Position numbers and translations under genes: made by a program. The notes beneath the pieces were generated by a model. It was given only the letters and a program-made list of their open reading frames with translations, was not told the origin of the DNA and searched no databases. This document shows, piece by piece, positions 17,109-51,341 of a stretch of 51,563 bases of DNA (its first letter is position 1; the number at the start of each line of letters is the position of its first letter). The stretch lies in UHGV virus genome UHGV-0189653; one strand, given 5' to 3'. The stretch is from a virus.

Positions 17109-17291
17109 TATCCTTCAAGCTCTGAAGGAGGCTGTTCCCGGTACGTTCAGACTGTTGTTGAGCTGGAAATCGCAACGGAGGAAGAGAAAGCGTTACTGGC
17201 CGCATGGAAAAAGTATCGGGTGTTGCTGAACCGTGTTGATACATCAACTGCACCTGATATTGAATGGCCTGCTGTCCCTGTTATGGAGTAA
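17109..17291 (+). pseudogene. tfa: 3-prime remnant of a tail fibre assembly (tfa) gene
   Basis: Directly after the stf stop, in frame and without a start codon, the sequence encodes ...[43 protein letters not shown], the conserved C-terminal tail of Tfa proteins. Confidence 0.5.
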
Positions 17292-17504
17292 TCGTTTTGT
17301 GATATACCGCAGACACGTTGTATGCAGGAACGTGCTGCGGCTGGCTGATGCACTTTCGAGAGTGCATGTATTGAATTATTTCCAGCTATTATCGATTTTA
17401 CGTATTTTTTGCATGAGAGAATTTGTACCTCCTCCCAACAACGACCTTCCATGACTTTCCGGACTTTTGTGGGCCAGCGGACGATGCTGTCCTCGGATGT
17501 TGTG

Positions 17505-18362
17505 CTAATTGGGTGATGACAAATCCTGTCTATGAGCGTTTCCCTTTGTGCGTGCGTTGAAGCTGATAACGGTAAACGTCATGATGAACACAACCGCGAA
17601 TAAGACGACAATCGTCGGAGCTGGTGCGCTGTCGATAAAAAAGGACAGCCAGACACCAGTCATTGAGACTATTACCGATATGCCAGTCGCCAGTAGGAGC
17701 GCAATATGAAAGCGTTGTGTCAGGAGTACCGCAATGGCGCCAGGCGCAATGAGCAGAGAAATGGAGAGAATGATACCTACTGCTTTCAGCGTTGCCACAA
17801 TGGTCAGGGAAACCATGCACAGCAGCCCATAATGCAGCCATCTCGTATGCAAACCGCTTACCTGCGCCTGTTGATAATCAAAGCTGAACAGCAAAAAATC
17901 CCGCCATTTTACGCTAATAACAAGTGTAACCAGCCCGGCAATAATCACCGTCTGGATTATATCGCCGATGGTTACCCCGAGCATGTTGCCGAAAAGAATA
18001 TGGTCAAGATGTACGTCTGGTTTGACTGCAATATACAAGATCAGACCTGCGGCAAACATGCCAGAAAAAACAATCCCCATCACTGTATCTTGCTTGATTC
18101 GGCTGTTGTCTTTCAGGTATCCCGTCGCCACCGCGCAGAATACTCCGGCGATAAATGCCCCTGTAGCCAGAGGTAACCCCAGAATCCAGGCAAGCACGAT
18201 GCCAGGAAAAACCGCATGACTCATCGCGTCACCCATCAGTGCCCAACCTTTCAGGACCAGAAAGACCGACAGCAGCGCACAGGGTATGGAAACTACCAGT
18301 GAAATCAGCAGTGCGTGACTCATAAAGGTAAACTGCAGTGGCTCCAGTAATAATGCCATCAT
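17505..18362 (-). CDS. sitD: Mn/Fe ABC transporter permease SitD
   Basis: 285-aa polytopic membrane protein, ABC-3 family, last gene of a four-gene minus-strand operon with overlapping junctions. Confidence 0.85.
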   Translation of the reverse strand: MMALLLEPLQFTFMSHALLISLVVSIPCALLSVFLVLKGWALMGDAMSHAVFPGIVLAWILGLPLATGAFIAGVFCAVATGYLKDNSRIKQDTVMGIVFSGMFAAGLILYIAVKPDVHLDHILFGNMLGVTIGDIIQTVIIAGLVTLVISVKWRDFLLFSFDYQQAQVSGLHTRWLHYGLLCMVSLTIVATLKAVGIILSISLLIAPGAIAVLLTQRFHIALLLATGISVIVSMTGVWLSFFIDSAPAPTIVVLFAVVFIMTFTVISFNARTKGNAHRQDLSSPN

Positions 18363-19216
18363 GAGCGATCCTCCAGCGCTTTATGCGCACGCCGACGATT
18401 TGCCAAAAGCCCATGGGTGGGCGCAAATACAAATGCTAAAAGAAACAGCAGTGTCTGCGCTACCACGATGATTCCACCTGTCGCGCCGTCCAGAAAGTAA
18501 CTGACCCACGCGCCGAGGAAACTGGTTACACTGCCAATAGTTACAGCAATTATGAGCAGGCGGGGAAAACGATCGGTTAACAACCATGCTGTTGCACCGG
18601 GAGTCACCACCAGACAGATCACCAGAAAGGCACCAACCGTTTGCAGCGCCGCAACGGTCGAAACCGACAGCAGGGTGAAGAAGAGGATTTTTAATCTGCC
18701 CGGATGCAATCCAATAGCACGGGCGTGATTCTCGTCGAAAAAGGTCACCATAAGATCTTTCCATTTGAAAAAAAGCACGATGATCGAGAGAATGCCAATG
18801 ATAGTGAGTTGCAGGATATCCGCCGGATCGATTGCCAGAATATTGCCCAATACGATGGTCTGAATGTTCACGGATGTCGGGTTCAATGACACCATAAACA
18901 GCCCCAGGCCAAAAAAGGAGGAGAAGATCAGGCCGATGATGGCATCTTCTTTTAAGCGAGTGCGTTGGTTAAGAAACAGCATGCTGCCCGCTGCCAGTCC
19001 GCCGGAAAAGAAGGCTCCCAGAGAAAACGGAAGCCCCAGCATATATGCTCCCGCAACACCCGGGACAATAGAGTGCGACAGCGCATCGCCAATCAGCGAC
19101 CAGCCTTTTAGCATCAGATAGCATGACAGGAAAGCGCAGAGACCGCCAACCATCGCCGAGACCCACATCGCATTGAGCATATATTCATAGCTGAAGGGTT
19201 CCAGTAGCACGTTCAT
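18359..19216 (-). CDS. sitC: Mn/Fe ABC transporter permease SitC
   Basis: 285-aa ABC-3 permease paralogue; 4-nt overlap with sitD and sitB. Confidence 0.85.
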
Positions 19217-20040
19217 CTTGCTTCCCTCTGCACCGCTGACGGTCGATGTGCCACAAAAGGGCGTTCATCGTCAGTAATAATGCTTTCTTCCGAGCCGTTA
19301 AGTGTGACATGGCGCAGTACGCCGCTAAAAGCCAGCTCCAGGTTCTCGGCTGTAAAAGTGGTGTCTGTCGGCCCGCTTGCCAGGACGGTGTTTTTGACCA
19401 TGACCGTATAATCGCAAAATGTCGTGACTGAGCCGAGATTGTGCGTTGAGACAAGCATCGTCTTGCCTTCCGCGCGTAACTCCCTCAACAGGCTGATGAT
19501 TTTCGCTTCGGTTTTCACATCAACGCCGGTAAAAGGTTCATCCAGCAGGATCACATCACCCTGCTGTGCAATCGCTCTCGCCAGAAAGACGCGTTTCTTT
19601 TGTCCACCGGAAAGCTCGCCGATTTGTCGATGGCGAAAATCCACCATATCGACACGTTCCAGCGCATCGGTGACAATCTGACGATCCCTCTTTTTGGCTA
19701 TACGCAACATACCCATGTGCCCATAGCGGCCCATCATCACCACATCTTCCACTAGTACAGGAAATGACCAGTCAACCTCTTCTGACTGAGGGACGTAGGC
19801 AACCAGGTTTTTCTGTAGCGCCTGTCGCGTGGGAATACCCAGAACAGATATCTTTCCGCTGGTCAGACGCACAAATCCCATAATCGCTTTAAACAACGTC
19901 GATTTTCCGGAACCGTTTACCCCAACCAGAGCGGCAATAGATCCACTTGGTACTGTGAAGGATGCATCGCGCAGTGCTGTGTGCCCGTTACGCCAGGTGA
20001 CAGTAACATCATTAACGACAATGCCCGCAGATTGCATCAT
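19213..20040 (-). CDS. sitB: Mn/Fe ABC transporter ATP-binding protein SitB
   Basis: 275-aa ORF with Walker [13 protein letters not shown] signature LSGGQ and Walker B ILLDEP. Confidence 0.9.
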
Positions 20041-20954
20041 TATTTCTCCCTTTTCCCGGCTTTAATTCCCTGTACCAGCGTACTGGTAGTAACCTTCAGA
20101 AGGTCGATATACGTAGGTACCGGGCCGTTTTCTGTGCTCAGGGAATCGACATAGAGTACACCGCCGTAGTGCGCGCCGGTTTCACGCGCAACCTGACGCG
20201 CTGGTTTATCGGAAATCGTACTCTCGCTAAAGACTGCCGGGATATGATTTTTCTTCACCATATCAACAACCTTACGTACCTGCTGCGGCGTGCCTTGTTG
20301 ATCGGCATTAATCGGCCACAGATAAAGCTCTTTTAGCCCCAAATCGCGTGCGAGATAAGAAAAAGCCCCTTCACTGGTGGCCATCCATCGCTGATTCTCA
20401 GGGAGTTCAGCAATCTGCTTACGCAGGGGGGCAAGGGTTTGGGTAATCTTGGCTTTATAAGTATCGGCATTACGTTGGTAGGTTTGTGCATTTGCCGGAT
20501 CGTATTTTATCAACGCATCACGAATATTATCGACGTAAATCAGAGCATTATCTGGCGACATCCAGGCATGGGGGTTAGGTTTGCCCTCATAGGGGCCTTC
20601 AGTGATCCCTACTGGCGTCACACCCGAAGAGACAATTACTTCTGGAACCCCATTAAGATGCTGGTAAAAGCGTTGGAACCACAATTCCAGATTCATACCA
20701 TTGGCGAGAATCAGTTGTGCCCCCTGCGCACGTTTAATATCGCCAGGGGTAGGCTGATACTCATGAATTTCTGCACCGGGCTTGGTTATGGATGAGACTT
20801 CTGCAGCATCTCCAGCCACGTTTTTGGCCATATCTGCGATGATGGTAAATGTTGTAATGACCTTGAATTTTTCAGTTGCACTCGCCTGAAATGCGATCGA
20901 GCAGGTGAGGGCGAGGCACCCCAAGAGCATGGTTACTTTTTTTATTGAGTACAT
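20040..20954 (-). CDS. sitA: periplasmic Mn/Fe-binding protein SitA
   Basis: 304-aa ORF with signal peptide ([18 protein letters not shown]), cluster-9 substrate-binding protein; first gene of operon. Confidence 0.9.
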
Positions 20955-38375: not shown

Positions 38376-38402
38376 AACCCGCCATTGAGCGGGTTTTGTT
38401 GT
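38376..38402 (+). terminator. tR-prime-like intrinsic terminator downstream of Q
   Basis: aacccgc-cattga-gcgggtt (7-bp stem) followed by ttgttgttt. Confidence 0.55.
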
Positions 38403-38513
38403 TTCTGGTACTGGTGAACCTGATGTTTCATTTCTGGAGCGCGATTCCTGGCGGAATACCTAGAATCGAGACATTCTGGTAAAATTGTTTTCAGTACAGG
38501 ATGTGGAGGTGAG

Positions 38514-39083
38514 ATGAGAGAACTACCTAAAGATTATTTTTTAGGAGTAGATGATGAGCTCGTCGATTATCTTGAAAAACAAGGGGAAGAGACGATACGA
38601 GAGATTCATCTTTCTAACAAAACCAATGTTGAGAATGGATACAAACTTCTGAACATTCAGATTGTTGGAATTGGTTCATCTTTTTTATTGCTGACACAGA
38701 AAACTAATTTCGATTTTCTCACCGCCGGAATTACCACATTTACATTACTATGGACATGGTGCGCCATTTACTTGGTATGTACTGGTTTATCTGTGAAGGT
38801 TAGGGGCCTGATCAATGCCCCTCCTGATCATCTATATCATGAAAAATATAAGGATATGGAGCCCTCGAGCTTTAAAATATTCGCTGATGCAGGATATTTA
38901 GGACCTGATAAGTTATTGCCGCTTATACGAAGGTATCGCCTTGTTGACTTGAGTGATACAGCAAGAGAGTTACTGTTGGAAAATGAGAAAATCCGCACGA
39001 GTCTCGATAAAGCAAGGATGTATACCATCCTTGCTCCGGTAGCGGCGATGTTTATCTCGGCTGTTTTTTTATATGTTCAATGA
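38514..39083 (+). CDS. hypothetical membrane protein (moron between Q and holin)
   Basis: 189-aa ORF with RBS GGAGGTGAG; three hydrophobic segments; AT-rich codon usage; no family recognised. Confidence 0.5.
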   Translation: MRELPKDYFLGVDDELVDYLEKQGEETIREIHLSNKTNVENGYKLLNIQIVGIGSSFLLLTQKTNFDFLTAGITTFTLLWTWCAIYLVCTGLSVKVRGLINAPPDHLYHEKYKDMEPSSFKIFADAGYLGPDKLLPLIRRYRLVDLSDTARELLLENEKIRTSLDKARMYTILAPVAAMFISAVFLYVQ

Positions 39084-39213
39084 CTGAGTCGGCAGAATCT
39101 CCAACAAAAACACGACGTGTAGCAAAGTCTGTAGTACTTTGTGTTGGAGTTGGTTTTGGTGCCACGGGTTGCTGAGGTTTATTTTCACCTTGTGGTTTGT
39201 TTTTTTCAGACAT
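39052..39213 (-). CDS. small convergent ORF (53 aa), hypothetical
   Basis: Minus-strand ATG at 39213 preceded by AGAGGA; encodes MSEKNKPQGENKPQQPVAPKPTPTQSTTDFATRRVFVGDSADSVIEHIKKQPR; overlaps the 3-prime end of the membrane-protein gene by 32 nt. Confidence 0.3.
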   Translation of the reverse strand: MSEKNKPQGENKPQQPVAPKPTPTQSTTDFATRRVFVGDSADSVIEHIKKQPR

Positions 39214-39307
39214 AAAAATCCTCTTTGTTTGAATTGTTACTTTTGGCGATTTAACGATATCAAACACGAGTATATACCGCCAGAAGCTTAATCTGGCACT
39301 CCATCTG

Positions 39308-39332
39308 GCCCCGGCATGTCCCGGGGCTTTTT
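39308..39332 (+). terminator. intrinsic terminator between moron and holin
   Basis: gccccgg-catgtc-ccggggc perfect 7-bp stem followed by T5. Confidence 0.6.
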
Positions 39333-39430
39333 CGTTGTTAGGCTCTGGAAACATCCTCGACTTCTTGTTAGCAAGCCTGAGAGCCTGAATCTTACACTTA
39401 GCACCATCCGAACTCTCGGAGGTGAGGCTT

Positions 39431-39772
39431 ATGAAAATGCACAATGCCCCTCATTCCTGGCCTGACTTACTGGAACTCTTACAAAGTTGGTGGCGTGGAG
39501 ATACGCCGCTGGGTGCAGTGGTTATGTCAATTATTATGGCTGGTTTGCGCATTGCCTATTTTGGCGGTGGCGGCGGCTGGAAACGAAAAACGCTTGAGAT
39601 TCTGCTTTGTGGTGCTCTGACGCTGACCTTTGCATCCGCGCTTGAGTATGTCGGATGGCCTAAATCACTTTCTGTTGCCATTGGTGGTGGGGTGGGGCTG
39701 ATTGGTGTTGATGCTATTCGTGGTGCGGCAATGAGGGTCATCGGTAACAAGTTCGGTGCCCATAAGGAGTAA
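39431..39772 (+). CDS. S: holin with dual-start motif (MKM)
   Basis: 113-aa membrane protein immediately upstream of endolysin; RBS GGAGG at 39418-39422; Met-Lys-Met start as in lambda S. Confidence 0.75.
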   Translation: MKMHNAPHSWPDLLELLQSWWRGDTPLGAVVMSIIMAGLRIAYFGGGGGWKRKTLEILLCGALTLTFASALEYVGWPKSLSVAIGGGVGLIGVDAIRGAAMRVIGNKFGAHKE

Positions 39773-39775
39773 TTA

Positions 39776-40252
39776 ATGCAGACACTTAATTCCCAGCGTA
39801 AAGCTTTCCTTGATATGGTGGCATGGTCAGAAGGAACAGATAACGGACGGCAGAAAACCAGAAATCACGGTTATGATGTTATTGTCGGTGGCGAACTGTT
39901 CACTGATTACTCCGATCACCCCCGCAAACTTGTCACGCTAAATCCGAAACTCAAATCAACAGCCGCTGGACGTTACCAGCTTCTTTCACGCTGGTGGGAT
40001 GCCTACCGCAAGCAACTTGGCCTGAAAGATTTTTCTCCAGAAAGTCAGGATGCTGTAGCGCTGCAGCAGATTAAAGAGCGTGGCGCTTTGCCGATGATTG
40101 ATCGCGGTGATATCCGTCAGGCTATCGACCGTTGCAGCAATATATGGGCTTCACTGCCGGGCGCTGGTTATGGTCAGTTCGAGCATAAGGCTGACAGTCT
40201 GATTGCAAAATTCAAAGAAGCTGGCGGAACGGTCAGAGAGATTGAGGTATGA
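39776..40252 (+). CDS. R: endolysin R (lytic transglycosylase)
   Basis: 158-aa ORF with [42 protein letters not shown], matching lambda R. Confidence 0.95.
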
Positions 40253-40713
40253 GCAGAGTAACCGCGATTATCTCCGCTCTGGTTATCTGCATCGTCGTCT
40301 GCCTGTCATGGGGTGTTAATCATTACCGTGATAACGCCATCGCCTACAAAGAACAGCGCGACAAAAATGCCAGAGAACTGAAGCTGGCGAACGCGGCAAT
40401 TACTGACATGCAGATGCGTCAGCGTGATGTTGCTGCGCTCGATGCAAAATACACGAAGGAGTTAGCTGATGCGAAAGCTGAAAATGATGCTCTGCGTGAT
40501 GATGTTGCCGCTGGTCGTCGTCGGTTGCACATCAAAGCAGTCTGTCAGTCAGTGCGTGAAGCCACCACCGCCTCCGGCGTGGATAATGCAGCCTCCCCCC
40601 GACTGGCAGACACCGCTGAACGGGATTATTTCACCCTCCGGGAACGACTGGTAATGATGCAGGCCCAACTTGAAGGTGCTCAGCAATACATAACCGAGCA
40701 GTGTTTAAAGTAA
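40249..40713 (+). CDS. Rz: i-spanin Rz
   Basis: 154-aa [24 protein letters not shown]... with N-terminal TM and coiled coil; lambda Rz-like. Confidence 0.9.
40469..40654 (+). CDS. Rz1: o-spanin Rz1 lipoprotein (embedded in Rz, +1 frame)
   Basis: 61-aa ORF with lipobox (LVVVGC) and proline-rich [15 protein letters not shown], matching lambda Rz1. Confidence 0.85.
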
Positions 40714-40850
40714 AATCTTAACTACAATATGATTCATTTTGATGATTGTTTCATAAGGAACAGTGAAGTAAGATCTAAGAGGAGTTAAATTTTATACAGT
40801 ATAATCATAATATTGCAGCAAGGTGGTTATAATTGAAAGAATATTTAGAT

Positions 40851-42308
40851 ATGAATACATCTCATGTAAGAGTTGTTACTCATATGTGTGGGTTCCTGGT
40901 TTGGCTCTATAGTCTTTCAATGTTGCCACCAATGGTTGTAGCATTGTTTTATAAAGAAAAAAGCCTGTTCGTTTTCTTTATAACTTTCGTTATATTTTTT
41001 TGCATTGGTGGCGGAGCGTGGTATACAACTAAGAAATCTGGCATTCAATTACGTACCCGTGATGGGTTTATTATAATTGTAATGTTTTGGATTTTGTTTT
41101 CTGTTATTAGTGCATTCCCTTTATGGATTGACTCAGAACTTAATTTAACGTTCATTGATGCTCTGTTTGAAGGGGTTTCTGGAATAACAACAACAGGAGC
41201 AACTGTAATTGATGATGTTAGTTCATTACCTCGGGCATATTTGTACTATCGGTCACAGTTAAATTTTATAGGTGGTTTAGGAGTTATTGTTCTGGCGGTT
41301 GCTGTATTGCCATTATTGGGTATTGGTGGTGCAAAGCTTTATCAGTCAGAAATGCCGGGGCCATTTAAGGATGACAAACTCACTCCCCGCCTGGCCGATA
41401 CGTCACGGACACTGTGGATAACTTATTCTTTATTAGGTATTGCTTGTATTGTCTGTTATAGACTTGCAGGAATGCCTTTGTTTGATGCTATTTGTCACGG
41501 GATTTCCACAGTTTCGCTTGGTGGTTTCTCAACTCATAGCGAGAGTATCGGATATTTTAATAACTATTTGGTTGAGCTGGTGGCTGGTTCTTTTTCCCTG
41601 CTATCGGCTTTCAACTTCACTCTTTGGTATATTGTTATTAGCAGGAAAACGATAAAACCTTTAATCAGAGATATTGAACTTCGTTTCTTTCTGTTAATAG
41701 CCTTAGGGGTGATCATTGTTACCTCTTTCCAGGTCTGGCATATAGGTATGTATGACTTGCATGGAAGTTTTATTCATTCGTTTTTTCTTGCCAGCTCCAT
41801 GCTCACTGATAATGGTTTAGCTACGCAGGATTATGCAAGTTGGCCCACGCACACGATAGTGTTTTTGCTGTTGTCAAGTTTCTTTGGGGGATGTATAGGT
41901 TCAACTTGTGGTGGAATTAAGTCACTTCGATTTCTTATACTTTTCAAACAAAGCAAACACGAGATAAATCAGCTTTCTCATCCCAGAGCGTTGTTGAGTG
42001 TAAATGTAGGAGGGAAGATAGTTACAGATCGTGTAATGAGGTCTGTATGGAGTTTCTTTTTTCTTTATACTCTCTTCACGGTGTTTTTTATACTGGTGTT
42101 AAATGGTATGGGATATGATTTTCTTACATCATTTGCAACAGTGGCTGCATGTATTAATAATATGGGATTAGGTTTTGGGGCTACTGCATCGTCATTCGGA
42201 GTGCTTAATGACATTGCAAAATGTTTAATGTGCATAGCTATGATTCTTGGTCGCCTTGAAATTTATCCTGTTATTATATTGTTTTCAGGTTTTTTTTGGC
42301 GCTCCTAA
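40851..42308 (+). CDS. trkG: TrkH-family potassium uptake protein TrkG
   Basis: 485-aa polytopic membrane protein from ATG 40851 (MNTSHVRVVTHMCGFLVW...); AT-rich gene and flanks. Confidence 0.85.
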   Translation: MNTSHVRVVTHMCGFLVWLYSLSMLPPMVVALFYKEKSLFVFFITFVIFFCIGGGAWYTTKKSGIQLRTRDGFIIIVMFWILFSVISAFPLWIDSELNLTFIDALFEGVSGITTTGATVIDDVSSLPRAYLYYRSQLNFIGGLGVIVLAVAVLPLLGIGGAKLYQSEMPGPFKDDKLTPRLADTSRTLWITYSLLGIACIVCYRLAGMPLFDAICHGISTVSLGGFSTHSESIGYFNNYLVELVAGSFSLLSAFNFTLWYIVISRKTIKPLIRDIELRFFLLIALGVIIVTSFQVWHIGMYDLHGSFIHSFFLASSMLTDNGLATQDYASWPTHTIVFLLLSSFFGGCIGSTCGGIKSLRFLILFKQSKHEINQLSHPRALLSVNVGGKIVTDRVMRSVWSFFFLYTLFTVFFILVLNGMGYDFLTSFATVAACINNMGLGFGATASSFGVLNDIAKCLMCIAMILGRLEIYPVIILFSGFFWRS

Positions 42309-42445
42309 TATATGGCTGATTTATAATTGTGAGTTTAATATTATGTTGACTCACTCATTGATCCAATACCTAACTTTACCAGCAACACCTCCGTCCCCAG
42401 TAGCACTGGCTGCTGGGGTGCGTTTTATTCATAAAGCAAGGCTGT

Positions 42446-43237
42446 ATGAGCGAGAAATTAAAGATAGTCTATCGCCCATTACAAGAATTGTCACCGTATG
42501 CGCACAACGCCAGGACGCACAGTACTGAGCAGGTGGCACAACTGGTAGAAAGTATTAAGCAATTCGGCTGGACTAATCCGGTGCTGATTGACGAAAAGGG
42601 CGAAATTATTGCGGGTCACGGTCGTGTTATGGCGGCTGAAATGCTCAAAATGGATTCTGTTCCGGTCATTGTTCTGTCTGGCCTGACGGATGAGCAGAAA
42701 AAGGCGTACCGCCTGGCAGATAATCGCCTGCCGATGAATGCTGGCTGGGATGAAGATCTGTTGCGGATGGAGCTGTCGGACCTAATCAATGCTGATTTTG
42801 ATGTCTCCCTGACAGGCTTCATCCCGACAGAAATTGATGAACTGTTGACGGATGTTTTGCCCGGTACAGGAAATGAGGAGGAGCCGTATACGACGAAAAT
42901 TGATACGCCTGTTTATGAGCCGTCGGGCGGTAAACCGGATATCAGTGAACTGTACGACGATACGAAAACTCAGGAGCTGATCAGCCGGATACGTTCGGCG
43001 TCCCTTGAGCCTGATATTGAGAAATTCCTCCTGTGTGCGGCAGAACGTCACACGGTGTTTAATTTCAGCAGAATTGCGGACTATTACGCTCACGCCCCCT
43101 CTGAAATTCAGTGTTTTTTCGAGGAGTCGGCGCTGGTGATCATTGATTATCAGCAGGCTATTGAAAATGGATTTGTCCGGATGACGCAGCGCATGGTGGA
43201 GATCATGCATGGTGGTGAGGAGGAGGAATATGCGTGA
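42446..43237 (+). CDS. ynaK: ParB-like nuclease domain protein (full-length YnaK homologue)
   Basis: 263-aa ORF; N-terminal ParB/Srx-type motif (KGEIIAGHGRVMAA); acidic C-terminus. Confidence 0.7.
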   Translation: MSEKLKIVYRPLQELSPYAHNARTHSTEQVAQLVESIKQFGWTNPVLIDEKGEIIAGHGRVMAAEMLKMDSVPVIVLSGLTDEQKKAYRLADNRLPMNAGWDEDLLRMELSDLINADFDVSLTGFIPTEIDELLTDVLPGTGNEEEPYTTKIDTPVYEPSGGKPDISELYDDTKTQELISRIRSASLEPDIEKFLLCAAERHTVFNFSRIADYYAHAPSEIQCFFEESALVIIDYQQAIENGFVRMTQRMVEIMHGGEEEEYA

Positions 43238-44162
43238 TGATTTTTGCGCCTTTATTCTGACTCACGGGCGACCGGACAAAGTTCTGACTTACCGGACGTT
43301 GCGTCGTGCTGGCTATACCGGGAAAATTTTTATCGTTGTTGATGATGAAGATAAGACACGGCATCAGTACATGGCTGAATTTGGTGAACAGGTGCTGGTG
43401 TTTTCCAAAGCCGATATCGCCAGTCGTTTTGACGAAGCCGATAATTTCTGTGACCGCCGCTCAATTTTTTACGCCCGTAATGCCTGTTTCGACCTGGCAA
43501 AACTGGTCGGGTGTAAATACTTCATTCAGCTCGATGATGATTATCACGAGTTCCAGTTTCGGGTGGATCGCAACTATGACCAGGCCTATTTTCCGATAAG
43601 GAAACTGGATGCGATCCTTTCTGAAATGCTGGCGTACTACGAATCAATACCTGCTCTTTCCATCGCTATGTCGCAGGGCGGGGATTTTCTTGGTGACAAT
43701 GGCGGCCATGCTTCGTGGGTGAAACGCAAGGCAATGAACAGCTTTATCTGTTCGGTTGATCGACCGTTCTCATTCATGGGGCGCATTAACGAGGATGTGA
43801 ATACGTACACGAATCTCGGTCGCTGTGGTGAATTGTTTATGACGATCGGTGCTGTCCAGTTAGGGCAGAAACAGACGCAGAAAAACAGCGGCGGAATGAC
43901 CGAGCTGTATCTGGATTCCGGAACCTACGTTAAAAGTTTTTACTCCGTCATGTATGCGCCGTCGTGCGTAAAAATCTCACTGATGGGTGCCAGCCATAAA
44001 CGCATTCACCATCAGGTCACCTGGAACAACGCTGCAGTAAAAATCCTTCACGAAAAATACAGGAAGAAGACACCCTGCATATCAATGGGGGTGACAAATG
44101 ATTCCGTATTCGAAAGTCGAGTCTCTGGCAGCGTGCCGGATGACTGCACAACAAATCGCTGA
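43230..44162 (+). CDS. putative GT-A-fold glycosyltransferase-like protein (DxD motif)
   Basis: 310-aa product from ATG 43230 (RBS GGAGGAGGA; overlaps ParB-like stop); beta-alpha-beta signature FILTHGRP...IFIVVDDEDK and downstream FIQLDDDY; soluble; inference from motifs only. Confidence 0.4.
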   Translation: MRDDFCAFILTHGRPDKVLTYRTLRRAGYTGKIFIVVDDEDKTRHQYMAEFGEQVLVFSKADIASRFDEADNFCDRRSIFYARNACFDLAKLVGCKYFIQLDDDYHEFQFRVDRNYDQAYFPIRKLDAILSEMLAYYESIPALSIAMSQGGDFLGDNGGHASWVKRKAMNSFICSVDRPFSFMGRINEDVNTYTNLGRCGELFMTIGAVQLGQKQTQKNSGGMTELYLDSGTYVKSFYSVMYAPSCVKISLMGASHKRIHHQVTWNNAAVKILHEKYRKKTPCISMGVTNDSVFESRVSGSVPDDCTTNR

Positions 44163-44349
44163 CGTTCTGGATGTTGATCTGAACCGACTGAAAGAAAATC
44201 GGGAAGCAATGACAGATTTTTATGCGGCCATCCGTAAGGGCAGAGCGAAAGGTGAAGCCGAGTTACGAGCGGCATTGTTTAAGCTTGCCAGAAAAGGGGA
44301 TGCCTTTGCTCTGCGCGAACTACTCAGGGTGGATAAAAATCAGGACTAA
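44098..44349 (+). CDS. small putative DNA-binding protein upstream of terminase
   Basis: 83-aa ORF with RBS GGGG, HTH-like segment (MTAQQIADVLDVDLNRLKENRE), overlaps end of upstream gene. Confidence 0.4.
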   Translation: MIPYSKVESLAACRMTAQQIADVLDVDLNRLKENREAMTDFYAAIRKGRAKGEAELRAALFKLARKGDAFALRELLRVDKNQD

Positions 44350-44352
44350 CTG

Positions 44353-45447
44353 ATGAGCAGACCGGACTGGGGGGCGTTGCAGCAGGAGTATATTGCTGAA
44401 TACACCCGCTCCGGTATATCTCCGGTGGCATGGTGTGAAGCAAGGGGACTGAATTACGCAACAGCCCGTCGTTACATCAAAAAAACTCCGAAAAATGCGC
44501 AGACAGAAATGTGCAAAACTGCGCAAAAAAGTGCGCAGAAAAAATCTGCGCAGACTGCACAAAAGCGGAACGAAAAATCTCAGGAAAAAAAGCCAGTATT
44601 CGATGCGGGCCTGAATGAGGGCGACGCGGAGGAATTTTCGTTCTGTCCCGATGAATTCGGCATTTCTGACCAGCAGGCTAAGTTTGCGATGCTTGTTGCT
44701 CAGGGTAAAAAGCCGACAGAGGCGTACCGACTAGCCGGTTATGAGGGGCAAGGTGCGACAGCTAATAGCAACGCCAGTCGTATGCTTAGAAATGCCAGGG
44801 TTTTTCGCGCTATCAGCTACTTCCGCAATCAGTACCAGAAACGCTATACCGCAGACCTGGATTTACTAGTGAGTCAGTTGATGGCCATTGTCCTGGCCGA
44901 CCCCAATCAGCTTGCACAATTTCGCCGTGTTAACTGCCGTTATTGCTGGGGCGAGAATCATCTCTACCAGTGGCGCGATATAGCAGAATTCGACAAGGCA
45001 GCGGCGCAGGCTTCCAGAGATGGCAAACCCGAACCGGAATATGGAGGCCTCGGCTTTGTTGATAACGCCATACCCAATCCGGACTGCCCGAAGTGCTGCG
45101 GTGAGGGAACGGGACAGCTTTATATGGCTGATACCACTCTGCTTGATGGGGATGCGCGGCAATTATATGCAGGGGCAAAATTCGGAAAATTCGGCGTTGA
45201 GATCCTGCTGGAGGATAAGGCTGCCGCCCGGCGTGAATTGTTGCGTTTGCTTTCTGCTGGCGGGGCTTTATGTGCAGATAAGCGGCTACAGGAACTGGAA
45301 ATTGAACGGCGCAGAATGGAAAACCAGAAGCTGCGCAAAGAGATCGAAACGGTGGAAGATAATGAACATCCCCAGCCTGTGGCGATCAATATTAATGTGG
45401 TTGATGCCAGAGTAAGGAGTGATGAAGATGATCTCTCCGACGCTTAA
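44353..45447 (+). CDS. terS: terminase small subunit (atypically long, with CxxC...CxxC region)
   Basis: 364-aa ORF directly upstream of and overlapping the large terminase; N-terminal HTH (ISPVAWCEARGLNYATARRYIKK), central Terminase_2-like segment, Cys pairs. Confidence 0.6.
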   Translation: MSRPDWGALQQEYIAEYTRSGISPVAWCEARGLNYATARRYIKKTPKNAQTEMCKTAQKSAQKKSAQTAQKRNEKSQEKKPVFDAGLNEGDAEEFSFCPDEFGISDQQAKFAMLVAQGKKPTEAYRLAGYEGQGATANSNASRMLRNARVFRAISYFRNQYQKRYTADLDLLVSQLMAIVLADPNQLAQFRRVNCRYCWGENHLYQWRDIAEFDKAAAQASRDGKPEPEYGGLGFVDNAIPNPDCPKCCGEGTGQLYMADTTLLDGDARQLYAGAKFGKFGVEILLEDKAAARRELLRLLSAGGALCADKRLQELEIERRRMENQKLRKEIETVEDNEHPQPVAININVVDARVRSDEDDLSDA

Positions 45448-46729
45448 TGTGCCTCAGGCGCGATTTCTTTCAATGCCCCATAAATTTAAAGCCTATATTG
45501 CTGGTTTTGGCTCGGGCAAAACATGGGTTGGGTGTGGCGGCATATGCAAGGGGATTTGGGAGCATCCAGGTATAAATCAGGGATATTTTGCGCCAACGTA
45601 TCCCCAAATTCGCGATATTTTTTACCCTACAGTGGAAGAAGTTGCTGCTGACTGGGGATTGAACGTAAAAATTAATGAGGGAAATAAAGAGGTTCACTTT
45701 TATTACGGACGCCAGTATCGGGGAACCACTATCTGCAGATCGATGGAGAAGCCACAAACGATCGTCGGTTTCAAAATTGGTAATGCGTTGGTGGATGAAC
45801 TGGACATTTTGCCGAAGGAAAAAGCCAGAACGGCGTGGCGCAAGATAATTGCACGTATGCGTTATAAGATTGATGGACTTCGCAACGGTATTGACGTTAC
45901 AACCACGCCGGAAGGATTCAAATTTGTCTACGAGCAGTTTGTTAAAGCCGTGCGTGAAAAAACAGAGCTGGCCTCACTGTATGGTCTGGTGCAGGCATCT
46001 ACTTTCGATAATGAAAAGAACCTGCCAGCAGATTACATTCCTTCGCTTCTTGAATCATACCCTCCAGAGCTGATTAAAGCCTATCTTCGAGGACAGTTTA
46101 CTAACCTGACAAGTGGTACTGTTTACCATCAGTTTGACCGGAAACTGAATAATTGCGAAGAAGTGGAGCAGCCAGGGGAGCCGATTTATATTGGGATGGA
46201 TTTTAACGTTGGAAAGATGGCGGGAATCGTCCATGTGCTGCGTTTGGGGCTTCCATGTGCGGTAACTGAAATCATCAATGCCTACGATACGCCGGATATG
46301 ATCCGCATCATTAAAGAACGCTTCTGGCTGTATGATGGGAATGATTACCGGAAAGTGAGGGAAATTTATATTTATCCAGATGCTTCCGGGGATTCCAGAA
46401 AATCAAGTAACGCAAGTACGACGGATATAGCCCAGCTTAAGCAGGCTGGTTTTAACGTTGTGGTGAACAGCTCGAACCCGCCAGTAAAAGATCGCGTTAA
46501 CTCAATGAATGCAATGTTCTGCAATGCCAATGGTGAGCGTCGCTATAAAGTTAATGTGAAGCGTTGCCCGTTATATGCCGAATCTCTGGAGCAACAGGTC
46601 TGGGATGAGAAGGGGGAGCCTGATAAAAAATCTGGCAATGATCACCCGAATGATGCCGGAGGTTATTTCATCGTTAAGCAATTCCCTATTGTCAAACCGA
46701 CCGGAAGAGTCACATCACTTCGGATTTAA
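45419..46729 (+). CDS. terL: terminase large subunit
   Basis: 436-aa ORF with Walker A (AGFGSGKT), nuclease-domain acidic residues; followed by portal. Confidence 0.9.
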   Translation: MMKMISPTLNVPQARFLSMPHKFKAYIAGFGSGKTWVGCGGICKGIWEHPGINQGYFAPTYPQIRDIFYPTVEEVAADWGLNVKINEGNKEVHFYYGRQYRGTTICRSMEKPQTIVGFKIGNALVDELDILPKEKARTAWRKIIARMRYKIDGLRNGIDVTTTPEGFKFVYEQFVKAVREKTELASLYGLVQASTFDNEKNLPADYIPSLLESYPPELIKAYLRGQFTNLTSGTVYHQFDRKLNNCEEVEQPGEPIYIGMDFNVGKMAGIVHVLRLGLPCAVTEIINAYDTPDMIRIIKERFWLYDGNDYRKVREIYIYPDASGDSRKSSNASTTDIAQLKQAGFNVVVNSSNPPVKDRVNSMNAMFCNANGERRYKVNVKRCPLYAESLEQQVWDEKGEPDKKSGNDHPNDAGGYFIVKQFPIVKPTGRVTSLRI

Positions 46730-50103: not shown

Positions 50104-50201
50104 CACATTTGTCAGCTTCCGGATGGGAGCTGGTGTCAGGGCTGGATAGCTCATTACTCCATCTATTCACAATTACGCAAATTTTTAAGGAATATTTAAT
50201 T

Positions 50202-51341
50202 ATGGCTGGAAATACCCTGACCGGGTTGATCCCGACTATTTATACCGCCCTGGATGTTGTATCCCGTGAGCAGGTAGGTTTTATCCCTGCGGTAGCAAAA
50301 AACGCAAAAGCTGACGCCGCAGCAAAAGATCAGACGGTAACCGCGCCAGTTGCGCCTGAGGCGAAAACCGAAGATATCGTACCGGGGCCGTCAGCTCCGA
50401 ATACCGGTGATCAAAATATTGGCACTGTTGATGTAAAAATTACTAAATCCAAAATGGCACCGGTTAAATGGAATGGTGAAGAACAACTGGCTCTTGGCCC
50501 TTCAGGGACTTACAACACCATTCTGGCTGATCAGTTCAAGCAGGCTTTTCGCGCCCTTGCAAACGAGGTTGAGGCTGATCTTGGTGCGTTGTATTTCGGT
50601 GCTTCCCGCGCCGTGGGAACCGCAGGGACAACGCCGTTTGGTGTTAAAGATGATCTTTCTGATGCTGCTCTGGCTCGTCAGGTTCTGGAGGATAACGGCG
50701 CACCGACAACCGATCTGCAGATGGTGCTTGGCTCCACTGCCATTGCTAATTTGCGCGGAAAACAGTCTGTATTGTTTAAAGTGAATGAATCCGGCACTGA
50801 ACAGCTACTGCGTGAGGGCGTGTTGGGGCGTCTGGAGGGATTCAATATTCACAGTTCGGCAGGTGTGAAACGAGCGCCAAAGGTTGCTGCAACTGGTTAT
50901 CTCGTGAATGGAGAGAAAAAAGAAGGCGATGTTCTTATTTCCATTGATACTGGTTCGGGGAGTATTTCTGCAGGTCAGATTGTTACGTTCGCTGGTGATC
51001 CGAATCAGTATGTTGTGGCAGCAGCGACCAGCAATCTGATTACTCTTGCAGCGCCCGGACTGCGTCAGGATCTGGCCGATGATACTGCCATCACAGTTGT
51101 TGGGGCCTTTACTGCAAATATGGCGTTTGATCGCAACGCGTTTCTGCTGGCATCCCGTACTCCGGCAATGCCGGAAGGTGGCGATAATGCTGATGATGTA
51201 ATGAATGTTACGGACCCGATTTCAGGGATTACGTTCCAGATTGCACTGTATCGTCAGTATCGCCAGGTGCGCTATGAAGTTGGACTGGCATGGGGTGTTT
51301 CATCAGTGAAGCCGGCACATGGTTGTCTGATTCTTGGTTAA
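50202..51341 (+). CDS. major capsid protein
   Basis: 379-aa product from ATG 50202 (RBS AAGGA); follows scaffold; followed by strong terminator. Confidence 0.7.
   Translation: MAGNTLTGLIPTIYTALDVVSREQVGFIPAVAKNAKADAAAKDQTVTAPVAPEAKTEDIVPGPSAPNTGDQNIGTVDVKITKSKMAPVKWNGEEQLALGPSGTYNTILADQFKQAFRALANEVEADLGALYFGASRAVGTAGTTPFGVKDDLSDAALARQVLEDNGAPTTDLQMVLGSTAIANLRGKQSVLFKVNESGTEQLLREGVLGRLEGFNIHSSAGVKRAPKVAATGYLVNGEKKEGDVLISIDTGSGSISAGQIVTFAGDPNQYVVAAATSNLITLAAPGLRQDLADDTAITVVGAFTANMAFDRNAFLLASRTPAMPEGGDNADDVMNVTDPISGITFQIALYRQYRQVRYEVGLAWGVSSVKPAHGCLILG

Follow-up and report, generated by a model that had tools for sequence, protein, structure and literature searches.

Up to now, glycosylation of phage DNA has been linked to hydroxymethyl-pyrimidines that are made by dedicated enzymes, and the glycosyltransferases most relevant here belong to TAGT (TET-associated glycosyltransferase, PF20691), a family of phage and trypanosome DNA-base glycosyltransferases that also includes those of TET clusters (PMC8256090; bioRxiv 10.1101/2023.12.21.572611). 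The TAGT of T2 and T6 adds a second glucose to glucosylated 5-hydroxymethylcytosine (hmC) DNA (PMC13390438, PMC13216743), and in a 2026 survey of 753 phage genomes that encode glycosyltransferases, 288 have a solitary TAGT, whose role the survey gives as unknown (PMC13216743). ParB-like proteins with a nucleoside triphosphate (NTP)-binding domain and a C-terminal domain, and without a DNA-binding domain, were shown experimentally to be required activators of phage thymine dioxygenases on double-stranded DNA (dsDNA) (PMC13229309); the idea that ParB directs modification enzymes during packaging is credited to Iyer et al. 2013, who also first named TAGT (via PMC13229309, PMC8256090). Here we describe a gene pair that brings these two themes together in the virus genome UHGV-0189653, a stretch of 51,563 nucleotides (nt) that we refer to as the window. 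The window corresponds to a prophage of the Rac type that sits at ttcA and has intR, recET, racR, and ydaS-V (PGAP table), and in it a full-length ynaK, encoding a ParB-like protein, overlaps a TAGT gene. A survey of ParB-CTPase fusions that includes prophage methyltransferases makes no mention of glycosyltransferases (PMC12704722), and we found no experimental work on a ParB-TAGT pair or on YnaK in the searchable literature.

The cassette is composed of known families but is an uncharacterized variant, in which a solitary TAGT is obligatorily accompanied by an adaptor module that had not been described before. The best-supported reading, to which we give an even chance, is that an adaptor-coupled glycosyltransferase is tethered to DNA and glycosylates it before packaging.

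42446-43237, + strand: ParB-like adaptor gene (full-length YnaK), 263 aa, acidic (isoelectric point, pI, 4.5), soluble
42446-42850, + strand: ParB/Srx-type domain of the adaptor (residues 1-135), predicted to bind NTP, with Pfam ParB_N at residues 23-90
42881-43195, + strand: C-terminal module of the adaptor (residues 146-250, ~105 aa), delimited by split hidden Markov models (HMMs), no Pfam family
43217-43237, + strand: coupling junction, with Shine-Dalgarno-like GAGGAGGAGGA, glycosyltransferase ATG 43230, and adaptor TGA 43235-43237
43230-44162, + strand: TAGT-family GT-A glycosyltransferase gene, 310 aa, PGAP name 'GREB1-related protein'

A glycosyltransferase and its two-domain partner

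The first-pass annotation had proposed that a 263-aa ParB/Srx-like protein is paired with an overlapping 310-aa protein whose FIVVDDED and LDDDY motifs resemble those of soluble GT-A glycosyltransferases. Profile HMMs and structure prediction of both proteins bear this out, returning ParB/Srx and GT-A folds. Although the second open reading frame (ORF) runs for 317 aa from ATG 43209, homologues and PGAP use ATG 43230, giving the 310-aa protein. Its Pfam TAGT match is strong (E=4e-35; residues 15-229 of the 317-aa ORF score 122.1 bits, cut-off 27.5), as is its match to phrog_842 (E=7e-104). The FIVVDDED motif lies in KIFIVVDDEDKT (residues 32-43) and IQLDDDY at residues 99-105, with the DxD at D102-D104 (nt 43533-43541); D38 and D41, which delimit the nucleotide-sugar motif, and D102-D103-D104-Y105 are invariant in family alignments, so that both motifs fall on invariant aspartates. 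The AlphaFold2 (AF2) model has a predicted local distance difference test (pLDDT) score above 90 at residues 1-150 and is weak past ~217; searched with Foldseek, it matches the GT-A enzymes SpsA, WrtF, and glycogenin in the PDB (E about 1e-4 to 5e-5), and it aligns with models of phage TAGTs at template modeling (TM) scores of 0.7-0.78. No transmembrane segment is apparent (maximum 19-aa hydropathy 1.08, compared with 2.62 for the trkG control), and the protein is mildly basic (pI 8.0; family median 8.8). A sequence search of the PDB found no homologous solved structure, the NCBIfam search with both proteins gave nothing useful, and PADLOC gave no defense-system match for the glycosyltransferase or the adaptor C-terminal module. 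Taken together, sequence and model identify the 310-aa protein as a soluble GT-A, DxD glycosyltransferase of the TAGT family, with a predicted activity.

Conservation of this enzyme is high. Across viruses of bacteria and archaea, 48 alignment columns are invariant, the acceptor-side half is ~50% identical across phyla, and identity to the Lactobacillus, Nocardia, Vibrio, and haloarchaeal virus homologues is 41-48%. Identity falls to ~22-24% between this clade and its nearest T-even-type relatives in the phage collection, the TAGT homologues found in T4-like Aeromonas phages. Beyond the Pfam domain, the region ~223-287 is a conserved extra C-terminal part (phrog_31222), and the protein ends in an E. 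coli-specific tail of ~22 residues, whose coding sequence overlaps the next ORF. The T2/T6 beta-glucosyl-HMC-alpha-glucosyltransferase and the TET/JBP phage glycosyltransferases, which are related to the trypanosome base-J glucosyltransferase, share with our protein the Pfam family, the GT-A fold with DxD, a soluble phage setting, and a close structure. Unlike in those systems, no alpha- or beta-GT, TET/JBP, or dCMP/dUMP hydroxymethylase lies alongside, the enzyme has the conserved extra C-terminal region, and a dedicated adaptor gene is always present. GREB1, from which the PGAP name derives, shares the TAGT domain (PMC7968844), but it is a large eukaryotic multidomain protein acting on ER-alpha, with neither an adaptor nor a phage context.

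The adaptor consists of two parts. Its N-terminal domain matches ParB_N (PF02195) with 29.3 bits against a cut-off of 26.3, the whole protein matches phrog_620 (E=1e-90), and a sequence search of the PDB returns Spo0J/ParB structures. Box II reads AGHGR and aligns to Spo0J GERR, with R60 on the second Arg, and in Box III, which reads ADN, D92-N93 align to E-N; R60, D92, and N93 are invariant in the partner alignment, and NTP binding is predicted from these motifs. AF2 models the domain with pLDDT 70-92, and the top Foldseek matches are ParB-CDP (6sdk), Noc, Myxococcus xanthus ParB, PadC, KorB, Srx, and SerK (6sdk, 7nfu, 7bnk, 6ryk, and 8qa9 are listed by id, together with Srx). By profile comparison, the domain is closest to those fused to phage DNA methyltransferases, as it matches the N-terminal part of ParB-methyltransferase fusions (phrog_498, E=9e-51; PADLOC MTase_II, E=1.5e-38). 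Pfam finds neither a helix-turn-helix (HTH) DNA-binding domain nor an additional nuclease domain in the adaptor, TIGR00180 scores far under its cut-off, no parA is annotated in the prophage, and no parS-like palindrome array or repeats lie near the cassette (only AAAAAnnTGCGCAGA units in terS). The nuclease label attached to this protein by the first-pass annotation is accordingly not supported, nor is a partition role.

The second part, the C-terminal module, has no Pfam match. It carries the motifs YTxKIDTPVYEP and FLLxAAERHTVFNFxKIADYYAH...SALVIIDY (family forms YTxKIxxPxYEP and FLxxAAxRHxVFNFxKIADYYAH...SALVIIDF..AIE.G), with Y148, T149, Y157, and P155/P159 invariant, and AF2 predicts a helical structure at low confidence, too uncertain for fold assignment. 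The module is found in 1189 representatives at 50% identity (E<=1e-3), almost always at the C-terminus of 240-310-aa proteins whose N-termini are ParB/Srx-type domains of several flavors, including a DndB-like DGHQR version.

To examine the pair beyond E. coli, we took diversity from a scan of one genome per GTDB species, which gave 79 loci, since an IMG/VR scan returned almost only near-identical E. coli prophages. The glycosyltransferase family comprises at least 8000 clusters at 90% identity (E<=1e-5), and the 79 loci span Bacteroidota, Firmicutes, Proteobacteria, Planctomycetota, Saccharibacteria, Spirochaetes, Verrucomicrobia, and one metagenome-assembled genome labeled archaeal. Homologues of the enzyme with 40-47% identity occur in Lactobacillus phages phi jlb1, c5, and LL-Ku, Nocardia phage NTR1, 191-kb Vibrio phages, and haloarchaeal virus HHTV-2; a 'ParB-like' gene stands directly upstream of the glycosyltransferase in those of them that are annotated, and the pair is found in phi jlb1, c5, NTR1, HHTV-2, and Vibrio phage pv27. 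With a partner HMM, an ORF lying immediately upstream and overlapping the glycosyltransferase start was detected in 77 of the 79 loci, the remaining two being cut by a contig end, and only the adaptor and the glycosyltransferase are universal among the clustered neighbors.

Separate HMMs for the ParB domain (residues 1-135) and the C-terminal module (146-250), obtained by splitting that of the partner, showed the two fused in 61 loci, the module alone in 15, and two separate ORFs in one. At least eight of the 15 module-only loci are complete with upstream sequence available, and the Vibrio phage partner is likewise module-only (E=3e-45). The split HMMs reject a reading of the 'short ParB' partners as ParB-domain-only proteins. 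The pairing proposed by the first-pass annotation is thus real, but at the level of sequence the universal partner of this glycosyltransferase clade is the C-terminal module and not the ParB domain, a partnership that would explain why ParB-like genes are so frequent beside phage DNA-modification genes.

In the window the two genes share 8 nt (ATG 43230 against TGA 43235-43237), with GAGGAGGAGGA just before the ATG, which by its sequence is a classic translational-coupling layout; in related loci the overlap is mostly 4-20 nt. Since the genes overlap by 8 nt and adjoin each other in 77 of 79 loci, we regard the pair as a near-obligate cassette and, judging by gene arrangement, one functional unit. 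Natural adaptor-glycosyltransferase fusions are absent among 150 representatives, and the pairwise identities of the two proteins, correlated as a test for co-evolution, give a Spearman coefficient of 0.09 that is uninformative, the identities being saturated.

Some loci carry tandem glycosyltransferases, a glycosyltransferase-methyltransferase fusion, or a separate methyltransferase, and these variants suggest multi-step glycan building like that of hypermodification clusters. Individual cases, with coordinates given as locus:start-end, include a module-only locus with two tandem module-glycosyltransferase pairs (L150:8460-10906), an extra divergent TAGT upstream (L119:2970-5117), a ParB with two TAGTs and an HNH gene upstream (L007:1357-3938), and, within L147:2614-6161, a TAGT fused to an S-adenosylmethionine (SAM) methyltransferase (L147:3581-5275). 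A 242-aa family without Pfam match (cluster 5; e.g. L107:1559-2287) is shared by 11 of the 79 loci, where its gene precedes the cassette by varying distances.

Three other systems invite comparison with the adaptor. It has the architecture of the ParBs associated with 5mYOX enzymes, an NTP-binding and a C-terminal domain without a DNA-binding domain beside the cognate enzyme; ParB176 sits beside 5mYOX176, a post-replicative DNA-modifying enzyme, and such genes are often near terminase (PMC13229309), but the partner here is a glycosyltransferase rather than an Fe/2-oxoglutarate dioxygenase, and the ParB domain is dispensable in some lineages. ParB-N/N6-N4 DNA methyltransferase fusions (phrog_498, PADLOC MTase_II; PMC12704722) have the most similar ParB domain, whereas in our cassette the enzyme is a separate polypeptide reached through the C-terminal module and is not a methyltransferase. 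A third likeness, to DndB-like proteins, which are also covered in the ParB survey (PMC12704722), is that of a ParB/Srx-fold NTP-binding accessory to a DNA-modifying enzyme, and the DGHQR adaptors mentioned above add to it, although partner enzymes, chemistry, and C-terminal regions differ. For background, the phosphorothioation and 7-deazaguanine systems of DNA modification have ParB-like accessory proteins, DndB and DpdB, and ParB-methyltransferase fusions occupy a similar pre-terminase slot in temperate phages.

Packaging and replication contexts

The position of the pair between trkG and the packaging genes, also reported in the first-pass annotation, holds in the window:

40833-42308: trkG, a low-GC moron upstream of the adaptor gene
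42395-42428, + strand: intrinsic-terminator-like hairpin (42395-42418) and T tract, after trkG and ~20 nt before the adaptor gene
44098/44140-44349, + strand: small terS-like ORF between the glycosyltransferase gene and terS
44353-45447, + strand: terS, terminase small subunit
45419-46729, + strand: terL, terminase large subunit

Of the terminator-like sites in 38400-45500, the hairpin is the best, with a 10-bp stem that includes 7 GC pairs and the tail TGCGTTTTAT, and its RNA fold has a free energy of -24 kcal/mol (z=-2.8). From these features it appears to insulate the cassette from the trkG moron, and expression of the cassette should therefore depend on late read-through transcription. As a separate observation, trkG is a clear moron by composition (GC 0.33-0.41, against ~0.5 in the flanks).

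Across the loci, two contexts emerge. In the ParB type, 3 kb or more of downstream sequence is available for 51 loci, and in 46 of them a large gene is among the first four; in essentially every one of these 46 assessable loci, the first large gene encodes a terminase or portal protein. The families involved are Terminase_6N (17), Terminase_3 (14), T7-like (7), GpA (5), Terminase_2 (5), TerL_ATPase (2), and portals (4), some proteins matching more than one family, and they are unrelated to one another. In c5, which is a cos phage, the gene order after cos starts with the pair. Module-only partners, by comparison, are located in replication modules and not beside terminases: four such pairs (L119, L121, L150, L154) have PolA upstream and a DnaN-like beta clamp downstream, two (L114, L155) are flanked by primase-helicase or SNF2 helicase genes, and the pair of the Vibrio phages is surrounded by primase, exonuclease, and helicase genes.

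Many of these ParB-less adaptors begin with Q..LF; in bacteria, the beta-clamp-binding motif (QL[SD]LF) is built around this core. This start is present in six of 10 complete module-only partners and in none of 1555 other genes of the same loci, with N-termini such as MKQTNLFG, MKQSELFT, MKKQTLLFE, MIQKTLFG, and MQMELFG. The six adaptors, which have phage PolA, DnaN, and primase genes as neighbors, are:

L114:2748-3146: Q..LF-starting ParB-less adaptor
L121:9607-10011: Q..LF-starting ParB-less adaptor
L130:71-469: Q..LF-starting ParB-less adaptor
L135:19-420: Q..LF-starting ParB-less adaptor
L137:4899-5294: Q..LF-starting ParB-less adaptor
L155:4311-4721: Q..LF-starting ParB-less adaptor

Because the carriers are related (median 54% identity), Q..LF represents a conserved feature and not six independent events. 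The motif and the DnaN-like neighbors suggest that ParB-less adaptors may bind the clamp. A DNA glycosyltransferase on a sliding clamp has a precedent in T4 alpha-GT, which binds gp45 (Sommer 2004, as cited and confirmed in PMC13216743), although the T4 enzyme is a GT-B protein that binds the clamp directly and acts on 5hmC, whereas clamp binding in our case is predicted from a motif in the adaptor.

DNA and other candidate acceptors

We infer that DNA is the acceptor, that the adaptor acts as a tether, and that the modification serves anti-restriction. The two genes would form one translationally coupled late-operon cassette, in which a metal-dependent (DxD) glycosyltransferase would move a sugar from a nucleotide-sugar donor, the adaptor C-terminal module would bind and activate it, and the ParB-type domain would be an NTP-gated DNA clamp or switch keeping the enzyme on dsDNA. 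In ParB-less lineages, the replisome beta clamp would replace the ParB domain as tether. Newly replicated concatemeric phage DNA would be glycosylated just before or during packaging, and this glycosylation would most plausibly blunt host restriction.

The strongest arguments for this reading come from the family to which the enzyme belongs, from how highly the acceptor side is conserved across phyla, from gene contexts centered on DNA, from a ParB domain of the methyltransferase type, and from two experimental precedents. Since the acceptor-side half is so similar across phyla, a universal acceptor such as DNA would be expected rather than a lineage-specific protein, and we also count in its favor that the glycosyltransferase is basic, the adaptor acidic, and both soluble. 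The suggestion of the first-pass annotation that the pair acts on phage DNA around packaging, for example by DNA modification, and not on the cell surface gains from the TAGT assignment, from the terminase or portal genes downstream in 46 loci, and from the terminator after trkG, all of which are consistent with such a role.

Several points weigh against a DNA target. The adaptor is strongly acidic and has no recognizable DNA-binding domain, and AF2 performs poorly on both its C-terminal module and the C-terminal third of the glycosyltransferase. Mutants in the NTP-binding residues of the dioxygenase-activating ParB still activate, leaving a clamp mechanism unproven there (PMC13229309). Some ParB-less partners, such as that of Vibrio pv27, have no Q..LF. 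Most importantly, a hydroxymethyl-pyrimidine pathway, with which a DNA modification by a TAGT would be expected to come, is missing from the prophage: the PGAP table, with Pfam on the remaining unknowns, reveals no TET/JBP dioxygenase, thymidylate-synthase-like hydroxymethylase, or C5-methyltransferase. No such product is annotated in the complete phages c5 (31.8 kb) and phi jlb1 (38.3 kb), whose unassigned non-tail ORFs are small, and hydroxymethyl-making families are not recurrent among neighbors in the 79 loci, where weak or divergent single-locus dioxygenases are possible; C5-methyltransferases occur in only nine, at variable distance. All TAGT-family acceptors known to us are hydroxyl groups (5hmC, 5-hydroxymethyluracil (5hmU), the sugar on hmC, Ser/Thr in GREB1), and we know of no GT-A enzyme that glycosylates canonical DNA. 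Balancing these points, we consider DNA overall to have an even chance of being the glycosyltransferase target.

Because this phage DNA is without a known TAGT acceptor, the cassette would imply either new chemistry on canonical DNA or a non-DNA acceptor. In the first case, as there is no source of 5hmC or 5hmU, the sugar would have to go onto a canonical base or elsewhere on the DNA, and we tentatively propose that a sugar is put post-replicatively on DNA without a hydroxymethylated base, for example on an exocyclic amine. The role of the adaptor in this version, equally tentative, would be to hitch the enzyme to its own ParB-type NTP switch near the packaging genes or to the replisome beta clamp. 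If true, viruses of bacteria and at least one haloarchaeal virus would use canonical-DNA glycosylation, including prophages in about one-sixth to one-third of sequenced E. coli. More broadly, a DNA target would mean a new DNA modification and a new way to recruit modifying enzymes to DNA, and would bear on restriction evasion, phage therapy host range, and sequencing artefacts.

Protein O-glycosylation is a rather unlikely alternative, in which the enzyme would modify either its own adaptor at the Tyr/Thr-rich YTxKIxxPxYEP, in the manner of glycogenin, or a packaging or virion protein. Glycogenin, which glucosylates its own tyrosine, is among the structural matches; the adaptor is the sole other universal component and carries the invariant Y148, T149, Y157, and P155/P159; structural genes adjoin the cassette; and no hydroxymethylated base would be needed. 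The TAGT-domain protein GREB1 O-GlcNAcylates a protein (PMC7968844), and if the cassette has a protein target, GREB1-type protein glycosylation would gain its first counterpart in a prokaryotic virus. The downstream packaging and virion proteins, however, come from unrelated families, so none is a conserved acceptor, and the ParB-less versions reside in replication rather than structural modules. Self-glycosylation makes little sense of an NTP-binding ParB domain or of a clamp-binding-like peptide, and the ParB domain is of the type that accompanies DNA methyltransferases. If the acceptor is not DNA, the invariant Tyr/Thr motif of the adaptor is the most attractive protein candidate.

We find it improbable that the target is a small molecule, a soluble metabolite such as an immune signaling nucleotide or a nucleotide sugar that would be glycosylated or consumed against host defense or for late metabolism, with the ParB/Srx domain serving to bind nucleotides or transfer phosphate. 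The complete module-only loci, of which there are at least eight, do without the ParB domain, which is therefore not part of the chemistry, even though the ParB/Srx fold includes ATP- or CTP-dependent kinases (SerK, Srx) that are among the structural matches. A universal metabolite would also explain the very high conservation of the glycosyltransferase, and would fit with the undetected DNA-binding domain, but terminase and replisome neighbors and clamp-motif-like N-termini point to DNA, and no PADLOC or other family match suggests signaling.

Slightly less probable still is a hydroxymethyl-pyrimidine acceptor supplied in trans, either the 5hmC, 5hmU, or glucosyl-hmC DNA of superinfecting T-even-like phages, as a means of exclusion or sabotage, or DNA modified by a dioxygenase encoded elsewhere. 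All biochemically defined TAGT DNA acceptors are hydroxymethyl-pyrimidines or sugars on them (PMC13390438, PMC13216743, PMC8256090), and Pyle et al. raise the possibility of prophage glycosyltransferases modifying invading genomes (bioRxiv 10.1101/2023.12.21.572611). The location of the cassette, in the late operon behind a terminator, is not that of a lysogen-expressed moron, and the pair is kept in hosts of many phyla and in lytic-type replication modules. Nor is a dioxygenase or ThyA-like gene annotated in the complete c5 and phi jlb1 genomes, and the clade is distant from the TAGT homologues of T4-like phages, as noted above.

Finally, two unrelated functions, a ParB-like partition protein or terminase-assisting nuclease next to a surface-glycan lysogenic-conversion enzyme, are very improbable: they are suggested by names in databases ('ParB-like partition nuclease', 'chromosome partitioning protein') and by the frequent seroconversion by prophage glycosyltransferases, but the overlapping, near-invariably adjacent genes form one unit in which the ParB domain is optional and the C-terminal module is not, the adaptor has no HTH and the prophage no annotated parA, Rac integrates and so needs no partition system, and the glycosyltransferase has neither a transmembrane segment nor Gtr partners (no gtrA- or gtrB-like genes are annotated in the prophage). 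With HTH, parA, parS, nuclease domain, transmembrane segment, and gtr partners all absent, we rejected partition, nuclease, and seroconversion roles.

Occurrence in E. coli and setting in the prophage

Of 5426 complete E. coli genomes, 1610 match the 2.1-kb cassette segment, 867 of them across 80% or more of its length, and the segment is also found in a lambda-like prophage of enterotoxigenic E. coli (ETEC) H10407. In K-12 MG1655, ynaK is an 87-aa N-terminal fragment fused straight to ydaY, which agrees with the earlier remark that the K-12 Rac prophage keeps only a truncated first gene; as the stub is joined directly to ydaY, the glycosyltransferase gene and all packaging and head genes have been deleted there. 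A solitary TAGT with its adaptor is now placed in an inducible, genetically tractable lambdoid E. coli prophage with K-12 as a natural deletion background, which makes the role of a TAGT without hmC or hmU directly testable. In E. coli N31, PGAP annotates ynaK as a C-terminally incomplete pseudogene (L002:24133-24390) while the glycosyltransferase gene is intact and the prophage is otherwise 99.8% identical. Judging from such sequences, the adaptor may decay independently of the glycosyltransferase in some lineages.

Between the cassette and terS, the small ORF at 44098-44349 encodes 83 aa from ATG 44098, or 69 aa from the PGAP start, and overlaps the 22-residue E. coli-specific tail of the glycosyltransferase. 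It matches the middle of the terminase small-subunit PHROG phrog_309 (E=8e-23) and is probably a mosaic joint or a split terS. Inside terS, at 44478-44554, three to four copies of the AAAAAnnTGCGCAGA direct repeat, spaced by 15-36 nt, encode a repeated K-x-AQK peptide in TerS; their palindromic TGCGCA cores might be pac-related.

The window as a whole looks like a circular permutation of one complete ~51.5-kb prophage or phage. The major capsid gene (50109-51341) and a small ORF close it, while position 1 takes up again with genes for head-tail connectors of 131, 127, 126, and 130 aa and for the tail tube (1-2538), and this order of capsid, connector, and tail tube across the window ends is exactly that of the ETEC H10407 prophage. 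As prophage cargo, the window carries sitABCD, four ORFs on the - strand at 17147-20954, between the side tail fiber gene and the integrase. This cluster, which encodes an iron/manganese ABC transporter known as a fitness factor of extraintestinal pathogenic E. coli (ExPEC), is 99.5% identical to prophage-adjacent sit loci in many E. coli.

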